NCBI GenBank assembly: GCA_038870455.1
Contig: JAWCPB010000014.1
Location: forward strand, 1-27,554
Direction: 5' to 3'
DNA: 27,554 bases
DNA from: Candidatus Micrarchaeia archaeon
Lineage (GTDB): Archaea; Micrarchaeota; Micrarchaeia; Burarchaeales; JACRGF01
The notes under the pieces are model-generated. The model was given only the letters and a program-made list of their open reading frames with translations, was not told where the DNA came from and did not search any database. This document shows, piece after piece, positions 3,523 through 14,464 of this stretch. How positions within the stretch are numbered: the stretch's first letter is position 1; every line of letters begins with the position of its first letter. Position numbers and translations under genes: made by a program.

Positions 3523-3705
3523 GCCCCTGTAGCTCAGTGGTAGAACCTTTTGCCGCGCGGCAGAAGCGTTTGCGGAAAAGTGTTCCGCGAAAGAGCGTGT
3601 GCATGGTAGAACCCTTTTTGCCTTTGGCAAAAAGCGTTGACGGAAGAACCGTCAACGGAAAAGCCATAGAGCACAAGGCCGCGAGTTCAATCCTCGCCAG
3701 GGGCT
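3523..3705 (+). tRNA. tRNA-Thr(GGT) with two introns: D-loop (about 3543-3590) and canonical 37/38 (3609-3669)
   Basis: Acceptor GCCCCTG/CAGGGGC, D-stem GCTC/GAGC, anticodon stem TGTGC/GCACA with GGT at 3605-3607, T-arm GCGAG-TTCAATC-CTCGC, discriminator T. A cloverleaf forms only after both insertions are removed. Confidence 0.9.
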
Positions 3706-3807
3706 TTAAACGAAGAGTGTTCTCAGGAGCAGGACGACCAGCAGAAAGAAGATGGCCATGGCGGCGGTGAAGGCCAGCGCGCCCGCGTCAGCCCTCGTTA
3801 ACAGCAT
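3706..3807 (-). CDS. Putative 33-aa single-pass membrane microprotein (MLLTRADAGALAFTAAMAIFFLLVVLLLRTLFV)
   Basis: Translated by hand. It fills the gap between the tRNA and a divergent promoter exactly, has a hydrophobic helix of about 20 aa, and has a TATA-like TAATAAA about 26 nt upstream on the minus strand. Confidence 0.55.
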   Translation of the reverse strand: MLLTRADAGALAFTAAMAIFFLLVVLLLRTLFV

Positions 3808-3816
3808 GAGACAGGT

Positions 3817-3853
3817 TTTTCTCCGAAAGAGCTTTATTAGCTTTCCGAGAAAA
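3817..3853. promoter_or_regulatory. Divergent promoter region: TATA-like core flanked by a 13-bp inverted repeat
   Basis: TTTTCTCCGAAAG-N11-CTTTCCGAGAAAA (12/13 symmetric) surrounds TTTATTA at 3833-3839. Confidence 0.45.
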
Positions 3854-3860
3854 TTTTCCC

Positions 3861-4559
3861 GTGAAGCTCCTGGTCGTCAGCGACGTTCACGGCAATTACG
3901 AGGCGCTCGAGGCCGTCGCGTCCGCCGTTCAGTACGACGAGGTCCTCTGCCTCGGCGACCTCGTTGATTTCGGCCCCGATCCCAGGGAGTGCGTGGAATG
4001 GGCAAGGCAGAGCGCGCGCTACATCGTCCGCGGCAACCACGATCACGCGCTCGCCAACAACGTGGCGTGCGGCTGCCCCTCGAAGAGAATGGAGCGGCTG
4101 GCGGAGGCCACGCGCGGCTACTCACACAGCGTGCTCGACGCCGCGGAAATCGATTTTCTCAAGGGCCTTCCGCTCAAGCTCGCCGCAAGCATTGGCGGAA
4201 GGAGCTTCTATGCGGTGCACGGGGGGCCCAGGGATCCTCTCTATCAGCTCATCATGGCGCGCAGCGACAGAGCGCTGGGGGAAGAGCTCGCCGGGATAGA
4301 CGCGGAATTCATCCTACTCGGCCACACCCACCACCCTTTCGTGAATTCCACCGCCATCGACGGGAAGGTCGTAATCAATCCCGGCAGCGTGGGCCAGCCG
4401 CGCGACGGGGACAACAGGGCGAGCGCCGCTGTGCTCGACCTCGACAGCGGCGCGGCCAGAATACTGCGCGTCAAATATGATGTCGACATCGTGTGCAGGA
4501 AGATGGCGCACGCCGGCTTTCCGAGCGAGCTCGCCGGCATTCTGAAGACAGGAAGGTAG
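3861..4559 (+). CDS. Calcineurin-like metallophosphoesterase (YfcE/MJ0912-like)
   Basis: SDVHGN, LGDLVD, RGNHD, VHG, GHTH and NPGSVGQPRDG motifs. Confidence 0.92.
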   Translation: MKLLVVSDVHGNYEALEAVASAVQYDEVLCLGDLVDFGPDPRECVEWARQSARYIVRGNHDHALANNVACGCPSKRMERLAEATRGYSHSVLDAAEIDFLKGLPLKLAASIGGRSFYAVHGGPRDPLYQLIMARSDRALGEELAGIDAEFILLGHTHHPFVNSTAIDGKVVINPGSVGQPRDGDNRASAAVLDLDSGAARILRVKYDVDIVCRKMAHAGFPSELAGILKTGR

Positions 4560-4603
4560 GAATAAAAATCTAATTCGCGGAAGAGAACGAAAAAGGTGAG
4601 AAC

Positions 4604-4822
4604 ATGGCCGAGCTTACGCCGATAGAGCAGATCATCGTCAAGGCGCTCCAGGAGCTGGGGGCGACGGGCGAGGACAAGATGAAGACCGCGGACGACGTGC
4701 AGAAGAAGTGCAACCGCCCCAAGGGGCAGGTGGCCAACGCCCTCACGAGCCTCGTGCAGAAGGGCGTTGTGATCAGGAAGGCGAGGGAAAAGGCCGCGGG
4801 CTATTATCTCAAGCAGGCTTGA
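4604..4822 (+). CDS. Small basic winged-helix nucleic-acid-binding protein (72 aa)
   Basis: Three-helix plus wing pattern (EQIIVKALQELG...TADDV...PKGQVANALTSLVQKGVV...GYYL). SD-like AGGTGA upstream. Confidence 0.8.
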   Translation: MAELTPIEQIIVKALQELGATGEDKMKTADDVQKKCNRPKGQVANALTSLVQKGVVIRKAREKAAGYYLKQA

Positions 4823-4824
4823 CG

Positions 4825-5640
4825 ATGGAAGAAATCGCCTTTCAGGCCAGGGTGGGGAACTGGAGGGCGAACGCCCGCTTTGAAGCCGCCCAGGCCAAGA
4901 ACGAGGATATCGCGCTCTTCCTTTCAACCGTGTGCGCCGAGTGCATAGAAAAAGCGTTCGAGTTCCTGGAAATCAATGTGGCCGAAGTCGATGATTACGC
5001 CAGGAAAGCGCTCGGCGTCAAGAGAGGGCTTGAGGGGGTCGCGGCCGCCCTGAGGGAAATCAAGCCGTCCGAAGCCAGGGAAGTTTTTTCCCGGGCCGGC
5101 GGGAATGAAAAAGCCCCGGCGTGCGAGGCGCGTTTCCTCAAAAAGCTCTTTGAGGAAGCCGGCGCGGAGGCCAGCCTCACTCCCTCCCTAGTAAAATCTG
5201 TTTTCCCGTCCGCGCAGCTCTCCCCATCAAAGTGGGAGGATGACTTGGGCGAGGGCGTTTTCTTTTCGGCCAACTGCAGGGGATGGATCAGCATAAAGAA
5301 GACGAGCTTCGATGCCAGGACCAAGCCGGAGGAAAAGGCGGCGGCTTTCGCTGGCGTGGCCGAAAGCGCCCAGAGAAAGGGACTGGAGTTTCTCGGAGTG
5401 TTCGGCGAGGCGCAGGAAAAAGCCGACTCGCTTACTGCTGGAAAGAGAAAGGGCTTTGCGGCGCTCGCCCAAGTGCTCTCCGGAATCGACGAGTCCGATG
5501 CTGTCGTTAGGGCGGGCATAACGCACCTTGCGCTCTCCAACCTCGGCTACGCCACCTTCCCGACCGCAGAAATCCTTCAAAAAATCTACCCGGGCCTCAA
5601 GCTTCCCAAGCCGAGGGGAAGATTCGGCCGCGGCAAGTGA
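4825..5640 (+). CDS. DUF2666-like archaeal protein with an internal tandem duplication
   Basis: Two similar halves (IAFQARVGNW...EDIALFLS and VFFSANCRGW...EEKAAAFAG) and a basic tail YPGLKLPKPRGR. Real ATG at 4825; the upstream extension in the ORF track overlaps the previous gene. Confidence 0.7.
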   Translation: MEEIAFQARVGNWRANARFEAAQAKNEDIALFLSTVCAECIEKAFEFLEINVAEVDDYARKALGVKRGLEGVAAALREIKPSEAREVFSRAGGNEKAPACEARFLKKLFEEAGAEASLTPSLVKSVFPSAQLSPSKWEDDLGEGVFFSANCRGWISIKKTSFDARTKPEEKAAAFAGVAESAQRKGLEFLGVFGEAQEKADSLTAGKRKGFAALAQVLSGIDESDAVVRAGITHLALSNLGYATFPTAEILQKIYPGLKLPKPRGRFGRGK

Positions 5641-5687
5641 AAGTTTTTAAAAACCATCCTTTAACCTATTCGCCCCGGGGGAAGGGA

Positions 5688-5930
5688 ATGAGGGAACTCA
5701 ATCTTGTAAAAGAGATTCTCGAGAAGATACTCGACGAGGCGAGCGCGCAAAGAGTCAGAGCGATAAAGACGGCCGAAATAGCGATCGGTGAAACCTTCCC
5801 CATGCAGATCAAAGATCTCAAGTACTGGCTCACCGAGCTCGCGAGAGGAACGCCAGCTGAGAAAACAAAATTCAGGTTCAAGAAAGGCAGAATAAAAGGA
5901 AGCGCTTATATAATAACTGAAATATCCTAA
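5688..5930 (+). CDS. HypA/HybF-like protein, truncated or degenerate (80 aa)
   Basis: MRELNLVKEILE...IKTAEIAIGE...L...LARGTPAEKT follows the HypA N-terminal pattern but lacks His2 and both CxxC motifs. Confidence 0.6.
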   Translation: MRELNLVKEILEKILDEASAQRVRAIKTAEIAIGETFPMQIKDLKYWLTELARGTPAEKTKFRFKKGRIKGSAYIITEIS

Positions 5931-6022
5931 TACTAGCCTATAAGTACTTATAATCGCATTTTGCAGTAATTTTTCCACTGATTATATGCAAGCATTAATT
6001 GTCATTTTTACTAGCTTTAATA

Positions 6023-6499
6023 TTATCCTCGTATTTTCCTCGCGGGCACTCCCCCGTAGAAACCCTTTTTCGGGACATCCTTGTTCACGAGCGACAGCGC
6101 GCTCACCACAGCGCCTTCGCCCACCTCAACTCCTGGCAGCACCACAGAACACGCTCCGATGAGGGCGCCTTCGCCCACCCTCACTCGCCCGACCCTAAGC
6201 TCATCGATCAGAAACTCATGGGCGAGTATGGTCACATTGTAGCCGATGACAGCGTTGTTGCCTATCTCAATGAGTTCGGGAAAGAAGATGTCGAGTTGCA
6301 CCCCAAGCGCGAGCGCGGCGTTTTCGCCGACACGCACGCCAATCGCCCTGTAAAGGACATTCTTGAGGCTGAGGGAGGGCAGGTACTTGCAGAGCTGTAT
6401 GACGAGGAAGTTCAGCGCGACGACAAGCGGGTTTTTGACGCTCGGCCAGCTCCACAGGGAATTCCTTCCGCTAAAGGCAAAGCGCTTGAGCCGCCGCAT
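6023..6499 (-). CDS. Left-handed beta-helix (hexapeptide repeat) acyltransferase, YvoF-like
   Basis: IEIGNNAVIGYNVTILAHE, VRVGEGALIGACSVVLPGVEVGEGAVV and the terminal GGVPAR. Start placed at ATG 6499. Confidence 0.9.
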   Translation of the reverse strand: MRRLKRFAFSGRNSLWSWPSVKNPLVVALNFLVIQLCKYLPSLSLKNVLYRAIGVRVGENAALALGVQLDIFFPELIEIGNNAVIGYNVTILAHEFLIDELRVGRVRVGEGALIGACSVVLPGVEVGEGAVVSALSLVNKDVPKKGFYGGVPARKIRG

Positions 6500-6503
6500 G
6501 AGG

Positions 6504-6704
6504 TCACTTTTTCCTTGCCGGTTCATGCGCCGAGAGCTCGGCAAAAATGGCCACGAGCACGATGAATATGGCCAGCTGCGCGCCGAAAATGAGCTCGAGC
6601 ACGCTGAGCTCCGTCGGCGGCGTCGTGACGTACAAGCCTATGAGATACACGAGTATGACGAAAGTGAAAACGACCAGGTAGGTCAGCAGGTTTATCCTCG
6701 CCAT
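6504..6704 (-). CDS. Small two-TM membrane protein (66 aa)
   Basis: Two hydrophobic helices; packed in tandem between the nitroreductase and acyltransferase genes. Confidence 0.7.
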   Translation of the reverse strand: MARINLLTYLVVFTFVILVYLIGLYVTTPPTELSVLELIFGAQLAIFIVLVAIFAELSAHEPARKK

Positions 6705-6743
6705 CGCCTCACCGCCCCTAGTTCGCCTTCTCCATTTTTAAAC

Positions 6744-7466
6744 CTATGCAGGCCTGCCAACAATGTTGAGGTAGATGACCTCCTCTCCATCACTGAGGTT
6801 GAGCAGGCGCCCCCCCTCCCCCTCGTTGAATGCCCCGATGGGCGCAGCGCCGAGCCCCAGCGCGGCGGCCTGCAGCAGGAGGTTCTCGCTCGCGTGGCCT
6901 GCCTCGAGCCACACGTACTCCACGCCCCTCGCGCCGTATTTTGATGTCGTCCTCTCCTTGATCGCCGCAAACACTATCACGACTGCGGCGTTTCCCACCC
7001 AGGGCTGCCCGGCCGCCACGCTGGCGATTTTTTCCCTGTAGTCGCCCGCGGCCACCAGCTCGAGCGAGTTGTTCCTGTTGTTGTAATGGTAAGCGCCCGG
7101 GGCAATGCCCTCCACGCGCGATACGAGCACATACAGCTCGAGCGGGTAGAGGCCTCCGGCAGAAGGCGCTGTCCTTTTTCCGTCGCTTATTCCCTGCGCG
7201 GCGAACAAGAGCGCGGACAGCTCGCCAGGCGAAATGCTCTCGTTCGTGTAATCGCGGACAGACCTGCGGGCCAGCAGAGCGCTCTCAAAGGAAGCGTTCG
7301 AGGGAGCCGGCGGGGGAAGCGCGACGACCGGAGCTCCTGGGTAGTCCTTTGCCGGCAGGAAGGGCTTGGGCAGGAGAGCGGGCAGGAGGTACGCGGCCGC
7401 CAGTATTGCGAGAAAGGCGACCGCCGCGGGAACGAACCAGTCCGTTTTTTTAATCTCGCCGCGCAT
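6744..7466 (-). CDS. SagB/ThcOx-type nitroreductase family flavoprotein with an N-terminal membrane anchor
   Basis: RRSVRDY, RTAPSAGGLYPLELY, KYGARG..Y..LEAGH..ENLLL.A.ALGLG..IGAF motifs, plus an N-terminal hydrophobic helix. Confidence 0.92.
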   Translation of the reverse strand: MRGEIKKTDWFVPAAVAFLAILAAAYLLPALLPKPFLPAKDYPGAPVVALPPPAPSNASFESALLARRSVRDYTNESISPGELSALLFAAQGISDGKRTAPSAGGLYPLELYVLVSRVEGIAPGAYHYNNRNNSLELVAAGDYREKIASVAAGQPWVGNAAVVIVFAAIKERTTSKYGARGVEYVWLEAGHASENLLLQAAALGLGAAPIGAFNEGEGGRLLNLSDGEEVIYLNIVGRPA

Positions 7467-7475
7467 GAGCTGAGT

Positions 7476-7799
7476 ATGGCCGCCGCTCTTTTAAAGCTTC
7501 AGAGGCTGACCGGCTGGGTGCTGCTGCTTTTCATCCTCGCCTACTTCGCAACCGGCTACGGCATGGTGAGGGAAGTCATCGACCCAAAGCTCTCGCTGGA
7601 AATTCACACGACGATTGACCTTCCGCTCCTCGCCACCTTCCTCATCCATGCTTCCATCGGCGCGCGGTTCGCCCTGCAGAGGCGGGGAATAAGCGGAAAA
7701 GCAGTCGATGCGCTCATCCTCATTCTCGCGCTGTGCCTTTTTTCCCTCGCGCTGTACATAAAGCTCTTCAGGCCGGCGGCCAGGCTCATCGGAGTGTAA
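7476..7799 (+). CDS. Three-TM membrane protein, cytochrome-b-like (SdhC/DUF4405-like)
   Basis: LQRLTGWVLL...ATGYG, and two His 14 residues apart around TM2 (EIHTT...LIHASIG). ATG at 7476. Confidence 0.65.
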   Translation: MAAALLKLQRLTGWVLLLFILAYFATGYGMVREVIDPKLSLEIHTTIDLPLLATFLIHASIGARFALQRRGISGKAVDALILILALCLFSLALYIKLFRPAARLIGV

Positions 7800-7922
7800 A
7801 GCCCCAGGAGAGATTTGAACTCTCGACATCTCGCTTACAAGGCGAGCGCTCTTTCGCGGAACACTTTTCCGCAAACGCTTCTGCCGCGCGGCAAAAGGGT
7901 TCTACCGCTGAGCTACTGGGGC
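7800..7922 (-). tRNA. tRNA-Thr(TGT) with a D-loop intron (about 7854-7902)
   Basis: Reverse complement: GCCCCAG TA GCTC AGCGGTA[intron]..GAGC G CTCGC CT TGT AA GCGAG ATGTC GAGAG TTCAAAT CTCTC CTGGGGC T. Confidence 0.92.
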
Positions 7923-8163: not shown

Positions 8164-8262
8164 GACCTTCCCCTCTCGAGGAGGGTCAGGAGGAACCTGG
8201 AACTGGGGAGGGGCGCAGCCCCTCCGCGGTTCGGCCCACTGGGGTTCGGTCCGCGGTTCGGT
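8164..8262 (+). ncRNA. Putative structured non-coding RNA or long structured leader of tRNA-Leu
   Basis: Non-coding and GC-rich with several stems (GACCTTC/GAGGGTC; GGAGGGGC-GCA-GCCCCTCC; GAACTG/CGGTTC; GAACC/GGTTC). Begins about 23 nt after TTAATTAA at 8134-8141. Confidence 0.4.
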
Positions 8263-8349
8263 GCGGGGGTGCCGGAGCATGGTCAATCGGGCAGGGCTTA
8301 GGACCCTGTGCGCTTAGGCGCTGCAAGAGTTCAAATCTCTTCCCCCGCA
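8263..8349 (+). tRNA. tRNA-Leu(TAG), intronless
   Basis: Acceptor GCGGGGG/CCCCCGC, anticodon arm CAGGG-CT TAG GA-CCCTG, long variable arm, T-arm AAGAG-TTCAAAT-CTCTT, discriminator A. Confidence 0.95.
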
Positions 8350-8387
8350 TGCGACAGTATTTAAAACAGGAATTCGATTGGACAGCG

Positions 8388-11300
8388 ATGCGAAAAGAAC
8401 TCGTGCTCGTCGTGCTGCTCGTGCTTCTATCGGGCTGTCTCGAGAGGCGCGAGCTCATCGCGCCCGAGAGGGAAGTGCTCGCGAACTGGACGAGCGGCGA
8501 TGCCGACGGGGACGGCGCGCCCGACTGGTTTTCCTTCTTTTTCGAGCCCTACAACATCACGCCGCAGATGAGCCTCGCGAGGAGGGTGCTCGTGGCGGGA
8601 GTCATTGAGCCGAGGAGGGAGGAGTTCAACTTCACCGAGTCTTTCTCCCTCGAGCCGGCAAGACTGGCTGAGACCAGGCGCCTTCTCGCGGCATTCAACG
8701 CCTCGCGCTTTTCCCCGACCCCGAACGGGCCGGCCGAGGCCGCCTGCAGGAGAGCCGGGGGCGTGGAACAGCCGTGCGCCGACCTCGCGGCCTGCAGGGC
8801 CGCCTGCTCGGCTTCCGGAGAGTGCGCCGCAAAGCTCGCGCTGTACGGCGATGTTCTCGCCCAGGCGCTGCTCGACTTTTCGCAGGCCTCGCACGGGCTT
8901 GACCGCGCTCTCGCCACGCTTTCCGCAGACCTTGACGCAGCGCAGGCGAGCCCGTCGCTCGCCAGGCTGAACAGGGTAGCGGGCGGTTTCGAGAGCGCGA
9001 AGGCTTTCGCCGCAGGGATTTCAACCACTTCGCTGGCCACCGCTTTCGGGCTGTGCGCGCCGGTTCCGGTGGGCCTCAACCTTCTTGAGGACGCCAGGAG
9101 GGCGTTCATCGCAAGCGTGCAGACAACAGGGGCTCTGCCGCCGCCTCCCACGCCCCGGCCTCCCGAGCGCTTTACTGTGCTCGTGCGCCTCACGCTCTCC
9201 ATGTCCGAGGGCTCTGCCTTCTCGGACCTCTCTCTCACCGAAGTCATTCCAAGGGAGTTTGCAGCAGACGCCTCTCAAATTGAATTCGGAGTGAATTACA
9301 CCGACATCTCGGCGCGGCCTCCCTTCGTGGTCACATGGAGGCACAGCAACGTCGGGGGGCGGGCGGGCGAGAGCGAGATCGCCTACCTCATCAAGAACGC
9401 GGGGGAGCCGAGGGAGGGCTGGCTGGAGTGGGCGCGGAGCCAGGCCAGCAGGCCCCAGCTCTCGCTCACGCGCCTGGAGCCCATGGCCTCGCCCGCGGTC
9501 GTTTTCGCCAAGGGCGTTTATTCGGGCGTGCTCTCCTTCTTCATTTCAGTCTCCAACTTTCACGTTGCCGTGGGCGTTGTCGCTGCACTCGCGCTGGTCG
9601 CGCTCTGGCTGCTGTGGAGCGGAGCCTCCTTCATTCTCGCCCTCGTGAATGCCGTGCGCACGAGGAAGGACCTCAAGGAGGCCGTTTACGCGTTCGCGGG
9701 CCACGGGAGCACGCAGACGCTCGCCTACCTGGCGATCGGCGTGGGCCTCACCCTGCTCGGGCTGGCTGTCATCCACCTCACCGCTCCGTTCCCGCAGCCT
9801 CTCACTGCAGAGAGCGACGTCCTGCAGGCGCTGAGCGCTGACTTCGCCAAGACGGCCGGCTCGCTCTCCATTTTCTTCGGCCTCATGTCCCTGTACTTCC
9901 TCATCGCCGACTTCTCCAAGGGCATTGTGCTGGGCAAGCGCTATTACGAGCGGCCGCTTCCGACTGGCGTGCGCGCCGTCATGTACGAGGCGCAGATTCT
10001 CGAGGCAGCCAAGGGCATGCGCGATTCCATCGAGCTGCTTCTCGAGCGGGCCCGGGAGCCGCGCAAGCAGGGTTTCGTCTTCGAGGCGGAGGAGAAGGCC
10101 GCGCGCAGCGCGCTCGCCATTCTCGACGCCTGCGAGGCCGCGTGCAAGGCGGCCAACCTCGCCCAGGCCAACATCGAGCTGCAGAGGGCGCGGGGCGCGG
10201 TCGAAAAGGCCAAGGCCGCGCTCGAGGCCAAGCTGGCCGCGCAGGAGAGGCTCTCAAGCCTTGCCGAGAAAGTGCAGAAGGCCGACAAGGCCGCGCGCTC
10301 GGCGCTCGAAGCGGCTGCAAAAATTGGCGTGGACATCCGAGAGGAGGAGAAGGCTCTCGGGGCCTCGCCTGCCAGCACCGCGCTCGAAGAGGCGAGAAGC
10401 GCATGGAGCGCGGACGACCTCGCCAAAGCAGAGAGGATTCTCGGAGAGAAGCTGGCCGAGCTGGAGGCGCTCTCAGAAGCCGCGGCGAAGAAGGGCGAAG
10501 AGCGCAAGCTTCTGCTGGGCAGGACGTTCCGCTGCCCGGAGTGCAGCCGCTCCATAAGCGTGGTGAGCGCCGTATGCCCCTACTGCAAGTCCGACGTGGC
10601 CGCCAAGATAAGGGAGAAGGCGGAGGAGCTGCGGAAGGCCATCGACAGGGACAGGAAGGAGCTCGAGCCGGCGCGCGCCTTCCTCGAGACGGCCGCGGAG
10701 GAAAAGACGCTGTCGGAAATAGAGGCCGCGCTGCCGGACATTCTCGACGCCGCCGGCCGCAGGGCCTTTGACGAGGCGACAAAGTCGCTCGAGGCCGAGG
10801 CCTCCCGCTACGACAAGGTCAAGCCTCTTCTGCGCGACAAGCTCGAGGCGTTCAAGGGCCTCACCGAGAGGCGCGGCATCCTCGAAAAGCGCGTTGACGT
10901 CATCCGGCACATGCTCGCCCAGGGAGCAAAACTGGGGCTGGACCTGAGCGCTGAGGAAAAAGAGTTCGGCTCGCTCGACCTCGAGGGCGCGGTGGCCAGG
11001 GTGCGCGAGCTGTTCAAGGCAGGAAAGTTCGCGGCCGCAGACGAGCTGCTCACCGCCACAGAAAACTCCTTCGAGAGGCTCGAGGCGCACACGGGCGACG
11101 TCATCGAGGACTTCCGCAACCAGTCGGACCGTCTCGCGCTCGCCGCAGCCTCGCTGAGCCGCATCGAGGAATCCGTCGCAAAGGCGAAGAAGGCCGGCCT
11201 CAGCGTGTGGAGGGAGGAGGCCGAGGCGAAGTCAATCAACCTCGAGAGGCTGCGCGCCGCGCTCAAGGCGCGCGAGCCGGTCGCAAAAGACATAGACGCC

Positions 11301-12170
11301 GCTGTCGAGAGGGTCGCCGCGATCGAGAAAAACACGGCGAGGAAGCTCGAGGCGTTTGAGGCGCTGGAGGCCAAGCTCGCCTCCCTGGAGAAGGAGATGA
11401 AGGAAGGCGATGTGCTGCTCAACAAGTGCCTTGTGGAGGGCATTGATGTGGGCGTCGAGCACGAGTCGCTGTACGCCATCGACCTGGACCGCCTGCGCGC
11501 ATCCCTCTCAGTCCTCGAGAGCGTCGAGGGCGTGCGCGCGCAGATAGAGGGCGCGCTCTCAGCTGCCGACGGCGCGCTGGCGAGCCTGCGTGAGAAGCTC
11601 GCCATGCTCGAGAACTGGAGCGCCTGGAGCGCGCACATCGCCTCCCTGCTGCGCAGGCAGGACACCATCACCGAGTCCATGCTCGTGGCCGTGCCCGAAA
11701 AGTGGAGGAAGTGGGCCATGGAGAAGTACCTGACAGAGCACCCTGCCGAAAGCTTTGTCATAGAGAACAATGCGCTCGTCCGCCTCAAGCCCGCGCCGGT
11801 GTCCAAGTTCCAGTTCGAGGTCATCCTACAGCGGCTCGTGGCCTCGCAGAAGATCGACGCCGCGGCTGTCGTGCGGCGGGACGGCCTCATGATAGCCAGC
11901 ACGCTGCCTCCTGCCATAAACTCAGAGACCATAGCGGCCATGGCCGCCCGCATCGCGTCGAAGTCCGAGATGGTCTCAGGCGAGCTCCGCCGCGGGCTCG
12001 TCAAGGACGTCATCATCGCCACGAAGGAGGGCAGGCTCGTGCTGCTCGCGGCCGGCCGCATGGCCATTCTCATAACATTGATAAAGCCGCAGGAAGACAT
12101 TGGGTTCGTGCTCATCACGATGGGCGAGGCGGCGAAGGAGATTGCCGCTCTGCTGGAGGGGAGGACCTGA
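8388..12170 (+). CDS. Giant (1260 aa) membrane protein: lipobox, Cys-rich ectodomain, 3-4 TM, helical-repeat rod with zinc ribbon, C-terminal Roadblock/LC7 (MglB-like) domain
   Basis: MRKELVLVVLLVLLSGC lipobox; DADGDGAPD Ca-binding-type motif; TM cluster at about 9500-9910; CPEC..CPYC; C-terminal AAAVVRRDGLMIAS.LP...ETIAAMAA is typical of Roadblock. TATTTAAA about 23 nt before ATG 8388. Confidence 0.9.
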   Translation: MRKELVLVVLLVLLSGCLERRELIAPEREVLANWTSGDADGDGAPDWFSFFFEPYNITPQMSLARRVLVAGVIEPRREEFNFTESFSLEPARLAETRRLLAAFNASRFSPTPNGPAEAACRRAGGVEQPCADLAACRAACSASGECAAKLALYGDVLAQALLDFSQASHGLDRALATLSADLDAAQASPSLARLNRVAGGFESAKAFAAGISTTSLATAFGLCAPVPVGLNLLEDARRAFIASVQTTGALPPPPTPRPPERFTVLVRLTLSMSEGSAFSDLSLTEVIPREFAADASQIEFGVNYTDISARPPFVVTWRHSNVGGRAGESEIAYLIKNAGEPREGWLEWARSQASRPQLSLTRLEPMASPAVVFAKGVYSGVLSFFISVSNFHVAVGVVAALALVALWLLWSGASFILALVNAVRTRKDLKEAVYAFAGHGSTQTLAYLAIGVGLTLLGLAVIHLTAPFPQPLTAESDVLQALSADFAKTAGSLSIFFGLMSLYFLIADFSKGIVLGKRYYERPLPTGVRAVMYEAQILEAAKGMRDSIELLLERAREPRKQGFVFEAEEKAARSALAILDACEAACKAANLAQANIELQRARGAVEKAKAALEAKLAAQERLSSLAEKVQKADKAARSALEAAAKIGVDIREEEKALGASPASTALEEARSAWSADDLAKAERILGEKLAELEALSEAAAKKGEERKLLLGRTFRCPECSRSISVVSAVCPYCKSDVAAKIREKAEELRKAIDRDRKELEPARAFLETAAEEKTLSEIEAALPDILDAAGRRAFDEATKSLEAEASRYDKVKPLLRDKLEAFKGLTERRGILEKRVDVIRHMLAQGAKLGLDLSAEEKEFGSLDLEGAVARVRELFKAGKFAAADELLTATENSFERLEAHTGDVIEDFRNQSDRLALAAASLSRIEESVAKAKKAGLSVWREEAEAKSINLERLRAALKAREPVAKDIDAAVERVAAIEKNTARKLEAFEALEAKLASLEKEMKEGDVLLNKCLVEGIDVGVEHESLYAIDLDRLRASLSVLESVEGVRAQIEGALSAADGALASLREKLAMLENWSAWSAHIASLLRRQDTITESMLVAVPEKWRKWAMEKYLTEHPAESFVIENNALVRLKPAPVSKFQFEVILQRLVASQKIDAAAVVRRDGLMIASTLPPAINSETIAAMAARIASKSEMVSGELRRGLVKDVIIATKEGRLVLLAAGRMAILITLIKPQEDIGFVLITMGEAAKEIAALLEGRT

Positions 12171-14344: not shown

Positions 14345-14464
14345 GCCTAGGTAGCTCAGCCTGGTTAGAGCGCCAGACTCATATCGCACCGCGATCTGAG
14401 TGCCGAGCCTTCGGGCAATGACCGGGAAATCTGGAAGTCGCGAGTTCAAATCTCGCCCTAGGCA
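14345..14464 (+). tRNA. Elongator tRNA-Met(CAT) with a 45-nt intron at 37/38 (14384-14428)
   Basis: GCCTAGG/CCTAGGC acceptor, CCAGA-CT CAT A[intron]A-TCTGG, T-arm GCGAG-TTCAAAT-CTCGC. The GCC start and the intron favour elongator Met over Ile2. Confidence 0.9.

Follow-up and report, generated by a model that had tools for sequence, protein, structure and literature searches.

Two threonine tRNA genes on a 27,554-nt contig of a Candidatus Micrarchaeia archaeon (contig C14, analysed over its whole length and called the window below) carry D-loop introns that are identical except for a single C. The account we favour, to which we give a probability of roughly 60%, is that both represent introns of the bulge-helix-bulge (BHB) type whose interior is a copy of a short sequence cassette, that they occupy old intron sites, and that one of the two Thr introns overwrote the other in this lineage. 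Positions refer to the window, the host genome is called G000 (1.04 Mb in 51 contigs, 60% G+C, scored 90% complete), and scores are those of R1, a covariance model of the 39-nt cassette core for which matches at E <= 2e-4 were counted as copies. The features that carry the argument are the following:

3523..3705, + strand: tRNA-Thr(GGU) gene, 183 nt, exons 3523-3542, 3591-3608 and 3670-3705; called by ARAGORN after in-silico splicing, with a syntenic orthologue in the sister genome G001.
3543..3590, + strand: D-loop intron of tRNA-Thr(GGU), 48 nt, after gene base 20; cassette core 3543-3579; R1 match at 31.6 bits, E 5.8e-6.
3609..3669, + strand: anticodon-loop intron of tRNA-Thr(GGU), 61 nt, at the canonical site and of the cassette family; core 3610-3647; R1 match at 37.4 bits.
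7800..7922, - strand: tRNA-Thr(UGU) gene, 123 nt, exons 7903-7922 and 7800-7853; likewise called by ARAGORN after in-silico splicing, with a syntenic G001 orthologue.
7854..7902, - strand: D-loop intron of tRNA-Thr(UGU), 49 nt; cassette core 7865-7901; R1 match at 40.5 bits.
3546..3597 (+), equal to 7847-7898 (-): exact 52-nt repeat, consisting of 45 intron bases and the 7 exon bases AAGAGCG.

The two tRNA-Thr genes lie 4.3 kb apart in opposite orientation. When 3543-3590 and 3609-3669 are removed from the first, ARAGORN reads a canonical 74-nt tRNA-Thr(ggt), and removal of 7854-7902 from the second yields a 74-nt tRNA-Thr(tgt). An earlier reading of this DNA from its letters (the sequence-only reading) had described the D-loop inserts as lacking an open reading frame (ORF), as differing by one C, and as being more alike than their host exons, all of which we could confirm. 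The introns share 45/45 bases after the C-run, where CC versus CCC is the sole difference detected by blastn-short, giving 48/48 identical bases and one indel over the whole pair, whereas the mature tRNAs share 57/74 bases (25/27 in positions 1-27 and 32/47 in positions 28-74). The 52-nt repeat lies in the longest inverted repeat of the window (63 nt at 92%; the runner-up has 52 nt at 71%), and the hairpin of the intron pair, GCCGCGCGGC, is found nowhere else in the genome. The sequence-only reading was silent on the second cassette-family insert of tRNA-Thr(GGU), that of the anticodon loop at 3609-3669.

We compared the window with Logan contigs from four DNA runs, all of one hot-spring study; 96% of the sampled words are present in run X1, which may be the sample behind the window assembly. 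An exact repeat of 52 nt exceeds the word length typical for de Bruijn assemblers, many G000 contigs end in cassette-family copies, and the Logan contigs break precisely at the repeat, which forms its own X1 contig covering 7847-7898. These features are what would be expected of an assembly artefact in which the assembler had collapsed or duplicated a single intron locus, or had used the repeat to join the wrong tRNA halves, and yet such an artefact is very improbable. Independent X1 contigs run into the repeat from each of its four unique flanks with no mismatch, and the depth of the shared piece is 16.8, compared to 7.2-9.7 on either side, an approximately twofold excess that fits two copies. 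With repeats in inverted orientation, mis-joining would exchange the halves of the two tRNAs; in the present assembly both acceptor stems pair (T6-A67 and A6-T67), whereas the exchanged halves would leave mismatches. Finally, G001 has both genes in the same order and at similar spacing.

The history of the pair can be read from G001, which belongs to the same genus and shares approximately 81% nucleotide identity with G000 in the flanking genes. Its two orthologous tRNA-Thr genes lie 4.5 kb apart with gene order kept, and both contain D-loop introns at sites identical to those of G000, in the same BHB frame and with homologous 3' ends. In Thr(UGU) this is a 16-nt intron, GAACGGCGTTCCGCCA, which has the same frame and ends, is missing the interior and folds as a mini-BHB, while the 27-nt D-loop intron of Thr(GGU) retains the cassette sequences GCGGAAA and GTTCC.CGA; both G001 copies look eroded. 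Likewise, the 21-nt anticodon intron of G001 Thr(GGU) matches the last 20 nt of the 61-nt intron in G000. Since both D-loop sites are occupied in G001, the event in G000 was not a gain at an empty site but most likely a homogenisation or replacement of resident introns. The Thr pair shows no substitution, compared to 48/54 identical aligned bases and 3 gaps between the orthologous Thr(CGU) D-loop introns of G000 and G001, indicating that the copy-over is younger than the species split. The recent intron transfer proposed by the sequence-only reading thus stands as regards its timing, the identity postdating the split from the sister genome, but not as a gain at an empty site.

The exons delimit the copied tract. 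In both species the two Thr genes differ in the same way at positions 6 and 16, and the differences that flank the introns, 4 nt upstream (position 16) and 7 nt downstream, are likewise retained; since the difference at position 16 is the same in both species, the copy-over in G000 stopped less than 4 nt upstream of the intron. All three Thr isoacceptor genes of G000 have a cassette intron at the same D-loop site with the signature AAAAGTG(G)TT. In more distant genomes, Thr(UGU) was without a D-loop intron in all seven that were read, and Thr(GGU) in five of six, the sixth (G005) having an unrelated AT-rich intron at the same site; the anticodon site of Thr(GGU) contains cassette introns in two genomes of another family, G016 and G025, as in G000. 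The sequence-only reading had also considered an intron that is old and equally constrained in distant relatives, and this describes the cassette core across phyla but not the present Thr copy, which is not conserved here outside the genus.

We therefore propose that both Thr genes would have borne related introns at these sites before the species split, and that afterwards one of these introns was copied over the other; the most likely route is short-tract gene conversion through the near-identical exon bases and intron ends. The direction was probably from Thr(UGU) to Thr(GGU): the intron sequence CCGC pairs perfectly with GCGG in the UGU gene and forms a G-U wobble with GUGG in the GGU gene, and G001 has CCAC at this position, which together point to the UGU gene as the probable donor.

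For both D-loop introns a 3-4-3 BHB can be drawn, comprising the D-stem, the bulge GA-A, a helix between exon GYGG and intron CCGC, and the bulge UA-G, followed by the intron helix AAC/GUU, which is extended by CUUUU/AAAAG. When this structure is forced, the UGU intron folds at -22.6 kcal/mol compared to a minimum free energy of -26.7 kcal/mol, and the GGU intron at -20.8 compared to -24.8 kcal/mol; with the forced folds lying within approximately 4 kcal/mol of the minimum, the modelled frame is plausible. Position 20/21 is a known non-canonical tRNA intron site (PMC4090602, in the part available to us). The predicted fold of the anticodon intron of tRNA-Thr(GGU) (z -5.8) comprises the anticodon stem, a 3-nt bulge AGA and the helix AUGGU/GCCAU, with its 5' site in a loop, which corresponds to the relaxed form. 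Within this intron (3609-3669), a conserved motif, GUUGACGG, pairs with the downstream sequence CCGUCAAC.

The genome encodes the corresponding enzymes. PF01974 is found at two loci. One of them (L001:1210-2373, - strand) encodes a 387-aa three-unit protein whose residues 3-387 can be aligned with PDB 4fz2 (E 3e-135), the lysine at the position of K161 being conserved. According to the accessible parts of the two reports, 4FZ2 is the epsilon2 EndA of ARMAN-2, with K161 as its substrate-recognition residue (PMC3488258), and this enzyme cuts strict and relaxed motifs in vitro (PMC3239211). The broad-specificity endonuclease that the sequence-only reading had mentioned for ARMAN archaea, advising that the EndA type be determined, is thus present as an ARMAN-2-like epsilon2 type; this enzyme and the titles of related cassette carriers agree with a placement in the Micrarchaeota. 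RtcB (PF01139) is also encoded. In the proposed mechanism, both bulges would be cleaved by the epsilon2 endonuclease and the exons ligated by RtcB. The RtcB locus itself (C16:7577-10399, - strand) shows two match pieces (profile positions 1-74 and 47-426) approximately 1.4 kb apart in a single 1087-aa frame and looks like an intein-bearing gene. A second, single-unit EndA-like ORF with PF02778 and PF01974 lies at C2:67402-67941 (-) and corresponds to L002:1468-2010. We considered this small ORF as a cassette-linked factor and rejected it, given its presence in 14/40 relatives including the cassette-free family f6 and its absence from our searches of the cassette-rich families f7 and f8.

The Thr pair is not a special case: in a genome-wide search it falls into a family with 52 sense-strand R1 copies in G000, compared to 12 in G001. 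The interior of the Thr introns is one copy of the cassette AACCCUUUU-variable hairpin-AAAAGCGUUNACGGAAAA, and short-word BLAST and motif searches define a common core consisting of AACCCTTTT, a hairpin variable in sequence and length, and then AAAAGCGTT-N-ACGGAAAA. In this genome, 32 copies reside in 20 tRNA genes, all in the sense of the tRNA. D-loops account for 11 of them, anticodon loops for 13 and the T-arm or T-loop for 8; tRNA-Pro(CGG), tRNA-Pro(GGG), tRNA-Lys(CUU) and tRNA-Thr(CGU) are among the genes with three or four copies. In these copies the intron starts one base before AACCC, and the cassette is followed on its 3' side by an AACC(C) partner, by four bases complementary to the 5' exon and by a further two bases, a layout that places the cassette at the tip of the intron's own helix. 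Covariation supports the hairpin, with 98.5% of cells paired and compensatory changes at 6/9 pairs, compared to 2.3 when shuffled and no more than 2 in slid controls, in an alignment that had been fitted to the R1 model.

The remaining 20 copies have no recognisable tRNA gene around them; they stand singly, in tandem or within other repeats, and those beside further repeat families are often at contig ends. In the tandem arrays, units of 58-61 nt are connected through an unvarying small hairpin linker, GAGCGCCTKCGGCGCC, and some of the other non-tRNA copies cap another repeated stem module, in 83-nt units. Cassette-plus-linker units also occur in the anticodon introns of tRNA-Val(CAC) and tRNA-Pro(GGG), where they are 98-100% identical although the host tRNAs are unrelated. 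Other repeats are interleaved with the cassette copies on C1, C2, C9, C18, C32, C38 and C44 (for example C44:1-200), including a GACAAAGGGGGG...CCCCCCTTCGTCC hairpin with 21 matches, a stem module GGTATCGGAACC.../...GGTTGGTTCTGAT with 20 and 14 matches in G000, and GGGGGAACC...GGTTCCC with 13 matches in G000; some of these double as tRNA introns and some abut Shine-Dalgarno-like gene sequences. The sole 5' half of tRNA-Arg(CCG), at C11:9319-9360, is followed by two cassettes and a unique gene, and its sole 3' half, at C38:~135-176, is preceded by repeat modules up to the contig end. Either the tRNA gene is split, or the assembly broke within a very long intron filled with repeats.

Comparison with G001 gives several filled and empty sites. 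The Leu(GAG) and Gln(CUG) genes have a cassette intron in G000 only, their G001 counterparts being intron-less, and Thr(CGU) has an anticodon intron and a two-cassette T-loop intron added in G000 only. Both genomes have an intron at the same site in Pro(CGG), Asp(GUC), Glu(UUC) and Gln(UUG), but that of G001 has an interior that is short, of another family or a decayed cassette. In G001 we additionally noted a 19-nt copy of the tRNA-Val 5' end, followed by another repeat, approximately 95 nt upstream of the complete tRNA-Val(CAC) on contig C14 of that genome (L024).

Beyond G000, R1 matches were present in 17/40 relatives and in 22/150 other genomes of the phylum, covering 13/20 families, with G000 by far the richest. 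In aligned copies from eleven other genomes the two flanks hardly vary, the hairpin being variable both in length and in sequence. A subtype with a 26-nt hairpin containing CTCCAGATGGG was seen in L098, L132, L140, L147 and L176, and CTCCAGATGGG words also occur in the D-loop intron of G001 tRNA-Pro(CGG), which is without the rest of the cassette. In a collection of species-representative genomes, the exact pattern AACCCTTTT-N(8-30)-AAAGCGTTNACGGAA matched at least 115 stretches, compared to a chance estimate of approximately 0.4 matches in 596 Gb assuming equal base use; in viral contigs it gave no matches. Among the 80 matches listed of these at least 115, 79 bear archaeal titles from more than ten named groups, and one bears a bacterial title and has no hairpin. 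The archaeal matches listed are distributed as follows:

Micrarchaeota and kin: 16 of 80 matches listed.
Aenigmatarchaeota: 12 of 80.
ANME-1/Methanophagales: 8 of 80.
Iainarchaeum: 5 of 80.
Parvarchaeota: 3 of 80.
Methanosarcinales: 3 of 80.
Methanobacteriota: 3 of 80.
Nanoarchaeota: 2 of 80.
Altiarchaeota: 2 of 80.
Methanocellales: 2 of 80.
Thermoplasmata: 2 of 80.
Syntrophoarchaeum: 1 of 80.
Halobacteriota: 1 of 80.
Unnamed archaea: 19 of 80.

The upstream flanks of many copies in other archaea are recognisable D-, anticodon- or T-loop sequence. A single trial deletion followed by ARAGORN gave a tRNA across the junction at 25-26/84 loci in the sense orientation and at 1/84 in antisense, the sense count being a lower bound because multi-intron genes fail this procedure. 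Copies of the ANME-1 type are located between protein genes. This distribution is in keeping with a cassette that is ancient or horizontally spread, and whose flanks, judged from sequence conservation, appear to be under strong constraint across archaeal phyla.

These data bear on how the two Thr introns came to be alike. Instead of a replacement, the 48-nt intron could have moved whole between the tRNA-Thr genes by an intron-specific route, that is, by true transposition or homing, for which reverse splicing with copying into DNA or a DNA-level mechanism targeting BHB-forming sites could be responsible. We consider this unlikely, even though the boundaries of the identical tract fall no more than 4 nt upstream and 7 nt downstream of those of the intron, leaving position 16 and the anticodon-stem markers untouched. 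Identical units in unrelated tRNAs show that some insertion mechanism must exist, and at Leu(GAG), Gln(CUG) and the Thr(CGU) T-loop cassette introns do occupy sites where G001 has none; the tRNA-borne copies are moreover all in sense (32/32), with 26 sense and 1 antisense in other archaea. For the Thr pair, however, no such empty recipient site was found in the close relative: both sites already held related introns in the common ancestor with G001, leaving no empty target. In addition, the reverse transcriptase PF00078, the Y1 transposase PF01797 and TnpB gave nothing above cut-off in the 90%-complete genome, and target-site duplications were not seen at filled-versus-empty sites. Rather less probable still is that there was no transfer at all, the intron stemming from an old tRNA-Thr duplication with every base kept by purifying selection. 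The D-loop site and signature shared by the three Thr isoacceptors, the invariance of the cassette flanks across phyla and a tRNA-Val cassette intron that is 98% conserved between species with approximately 81% gene identity are all compatible with such constancy. But hairpins vary freely among copies, and the pair nevertheless shares one that is unique in the genome; the G001 orthologues have been cut to 16 and 27 nt and are unlike each other; in G001 decay has affected the orthologous cassettes of Gln(UUG) and Pro(CGG); and outside the genus Thr(UGU) and Thr(GGU) are without this intron in the genomes read.

Replacement of one resident intron by the other remains the account we prefer, and several points weigh against it. 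The tRNA-Val(CAC) cassette intron, which contains two cassettes, shows 2 differences in 107 nt between the species (98.9% over 188 nt between G000 and G001); cassette introns can thus stay nearly unchanged between species, which makes near-identity on its own a weak clock. We infer gene conversion from the pattern alone, and the converted tract must end within 4 nt upstream and 7 nt downstream, as an intron-specific mechanism would also predict. The argument for Thr(UGU) as donor fails if the ancestor had CCGC and G001 later acquired CCAC. Splicing and the exact cut sites of both D-loop introns are likewise what we infer, from a BHB that is not the minimum-free-energy fold or predicted optimum and that needs an A-A mismatch beside the D-stem. 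For the 32 copies, the host tRNA and the position within it were assigned by visual inspection. For the wider distribution, contamination of genome bins could inflate the list of phyla outside DPANN; running counter to this, the same cassette subtype recurs in several independent ANME-1 bins.

We also asked which known kinds of element the cassette might belong to. Rfam contains no family that matches the cassette or its non-tRNA contexts at gathering score or E <= 0.1, matches at E <= 10 being at chance level, and the cassette is absent from Rfam 15. A search of the published literature, with supplementary tables outside its reach, found no description of it, and the cassette seems to be undescribed so far. 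A group I or II intron is not supported, with no Rfam match, no match to PF00078 and a length of 48-61 nt. A C/D-box guide intron of the tRNA-Trp type would have a C box (RUGAUGA) and a D box (CUGA); neither box occurs in 3543-3590 or 7854-7902, and no Rfam match was obtained. The tandem copies are not a CRISPR array (clustered regularly interspaced short palindromic repeats), as their units adjoin through the constant linker GAGCGCCTKCGGCGCC with no unique spacers. We also rejected a repeat derived from an insertion sequence or from a miniature inverted-repeat transposable element (MITE), since no target-site duplication was found at filled-versus-empty sites, and in G000 the Y1 transposase PF01797 gave no match over cut-off and TnpB matched below cut-off only. 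The ends AACCCTTTT/AAAAGGGTT are found in many single copies but not across phyla. At T-loop sites an apparent direct repeat is the palindrome TTCGAA, and the Thr(CGU) copy has the complement TTGAA there, which identifies a splice helix rather than a duplication. The copy at C8:13008 is not an mRNA intron, the stop codon of the ORF lying within the first bases of the copy.

The cassette motif is flanked by mirrored A-tracts, AAAAG-CGUUNACG-GAAAA, both of which could lie on the U-tract helix. A mirror repeat (triple helix) was rejected as a general feature, because the mirror extends beyond the fixed A-tracts in the homopurine-hairpin subtype alone; mirror matches beyond the A-tracts averaged 3.09/8 in other archaea compared to 2.12 when shuffled, and 1.87 compared to 2.33 in G000.

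The closest precedents are found among other archaeal tRNA introns. In the Thermoproteales, the presence of almost the same intron in different tRNA genes is regarded as a sign of spread after speciation, by an unknown mechanism that is assumed to operate at the DNA level (PMC4090602, in its available part). As far as that part of the account goes, the present introns resemble the transposed introns of the Thermoproteales in being nearly identical within tRNA genes of clearly different bodies. They differ in that the similarity resides in a discrete core of approximately 39 nt with invariant flanks and a free hairpin, that this core is common to archaeal phyla rather than to one order and also occurs outside tRNA genes and in tandem, and that the Thr pair reflects replacement at occupied homologous sites. 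Candidatus Micrarchaeum acidiphilum ARMAN-2, from the same phylum, has multi-intron tRNA genes and a three-unit epsilon2 EndA (PMC3239211, PMC3488258); judging from the accessible portions of these accounts, it shares with G000 the EndA architecture and tRNAs with heavy disruption at non-canonical sites, where strict as well as relaxed motifs occur. The same portions mention no conserved intron sequence family, the tRNA list of ARMAN-2 being supplementary, and the available part of a 2026 preprint on Asgard tRNA introns makes no mention of DPANN or of intron families.

Among mobile repeats, MITEs and the bacterial repetitive extragenic palindromic (REP) and REPIN elements are small and non-autonomous. 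Like these, the cassette is short, ORF-less, hairpin-bearing, multi-copy, intergenic and sometimes tandem, and its copy number differs strongly between sister genomes (52 versus 12). Unlike them, it has no transposase partner or target-site duplication that we could find, is sense-only within tRNA genes and resides for the most part inside introns that are presumably spliced, and its primary-sequence conservation across phyla goes far beyond that of known MITE families.

The surroundings of the Thr pair are ordinary. Genes for a metallophosphoesterase, a DUF2666 protein and a nitroreductase lie between the two tRNA-Thr genes, and an adenylosuccinate synthetase gene lies upstream. Elsewhere in the window, a tRNA with anticodon CAU (14345-14464, + strand) contains a 47-nt canonical intron outside the cassette family. 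The tRNA-Leu(UAG) gene (8262-8350, +) is uninterrupted, its aligned stretch of 87 nt compared to 110 nt in the sister genome indicating an insert in the latter. The sole Pfam match of a 1273-aa ORF (8349-12170, +) is a C-terminal Roadblock/LC7 domain. Both tRNA-Thr genes were missed or mis-called by unmodified ARAGORN and Rfam, and Rfam tRNA matches over cut-off number 15 in G000 compared to 29 in G001. On the practical side, cassette-bearing tRNA genes escape or confuse standard tRNA finders.

Taken together, the broader object worth following is the pan-archaeal intron and spacer cassette rather than the Thr pair. Invariant flanks around a free hairpin, together with the sense-only orientation within tRNA genes, argue for an RNA-level constraint imposed by a conserved trans-acting factor, although a selfish element needing such a factor would look alike. 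We put forward tentatively, and at less than even odds, that the cassette is an undescribed pan-archaeal RNA module, being either a structured element read by a conserved archaeal protein or the first horizontally mobile, ORF-less BHB intron element. As a structured element it may, in the modelled form, act as a clamp with the two mirrored A-tracts on the U-tract helix; as a mobile element it could possibly live on the universal EndA/RtcB machinery and seed new tRNA introns and intergenic repeats. If either is true, G000 captures a burst of the element (52 copies), with the Thr pair among its latest copying events.

The origin and movement of archaeal tRNA introns have been open questions since the work on the Thermoproteales, and G000 and G001 give dated, base-precise comparisons of filled and empty sites, of interiors swapped at fixed splice frames, of erosion to mini-introns and of one fresh copy-over between neighbouring genes. 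The shared cassette offers a concrete sequence for testing protein binding, structure and mobility, and identical flanks in DPANN, ANME-1, methanogens and Thermoplasmata would rank it among the most widely conserved small non-coding elements of archaea.

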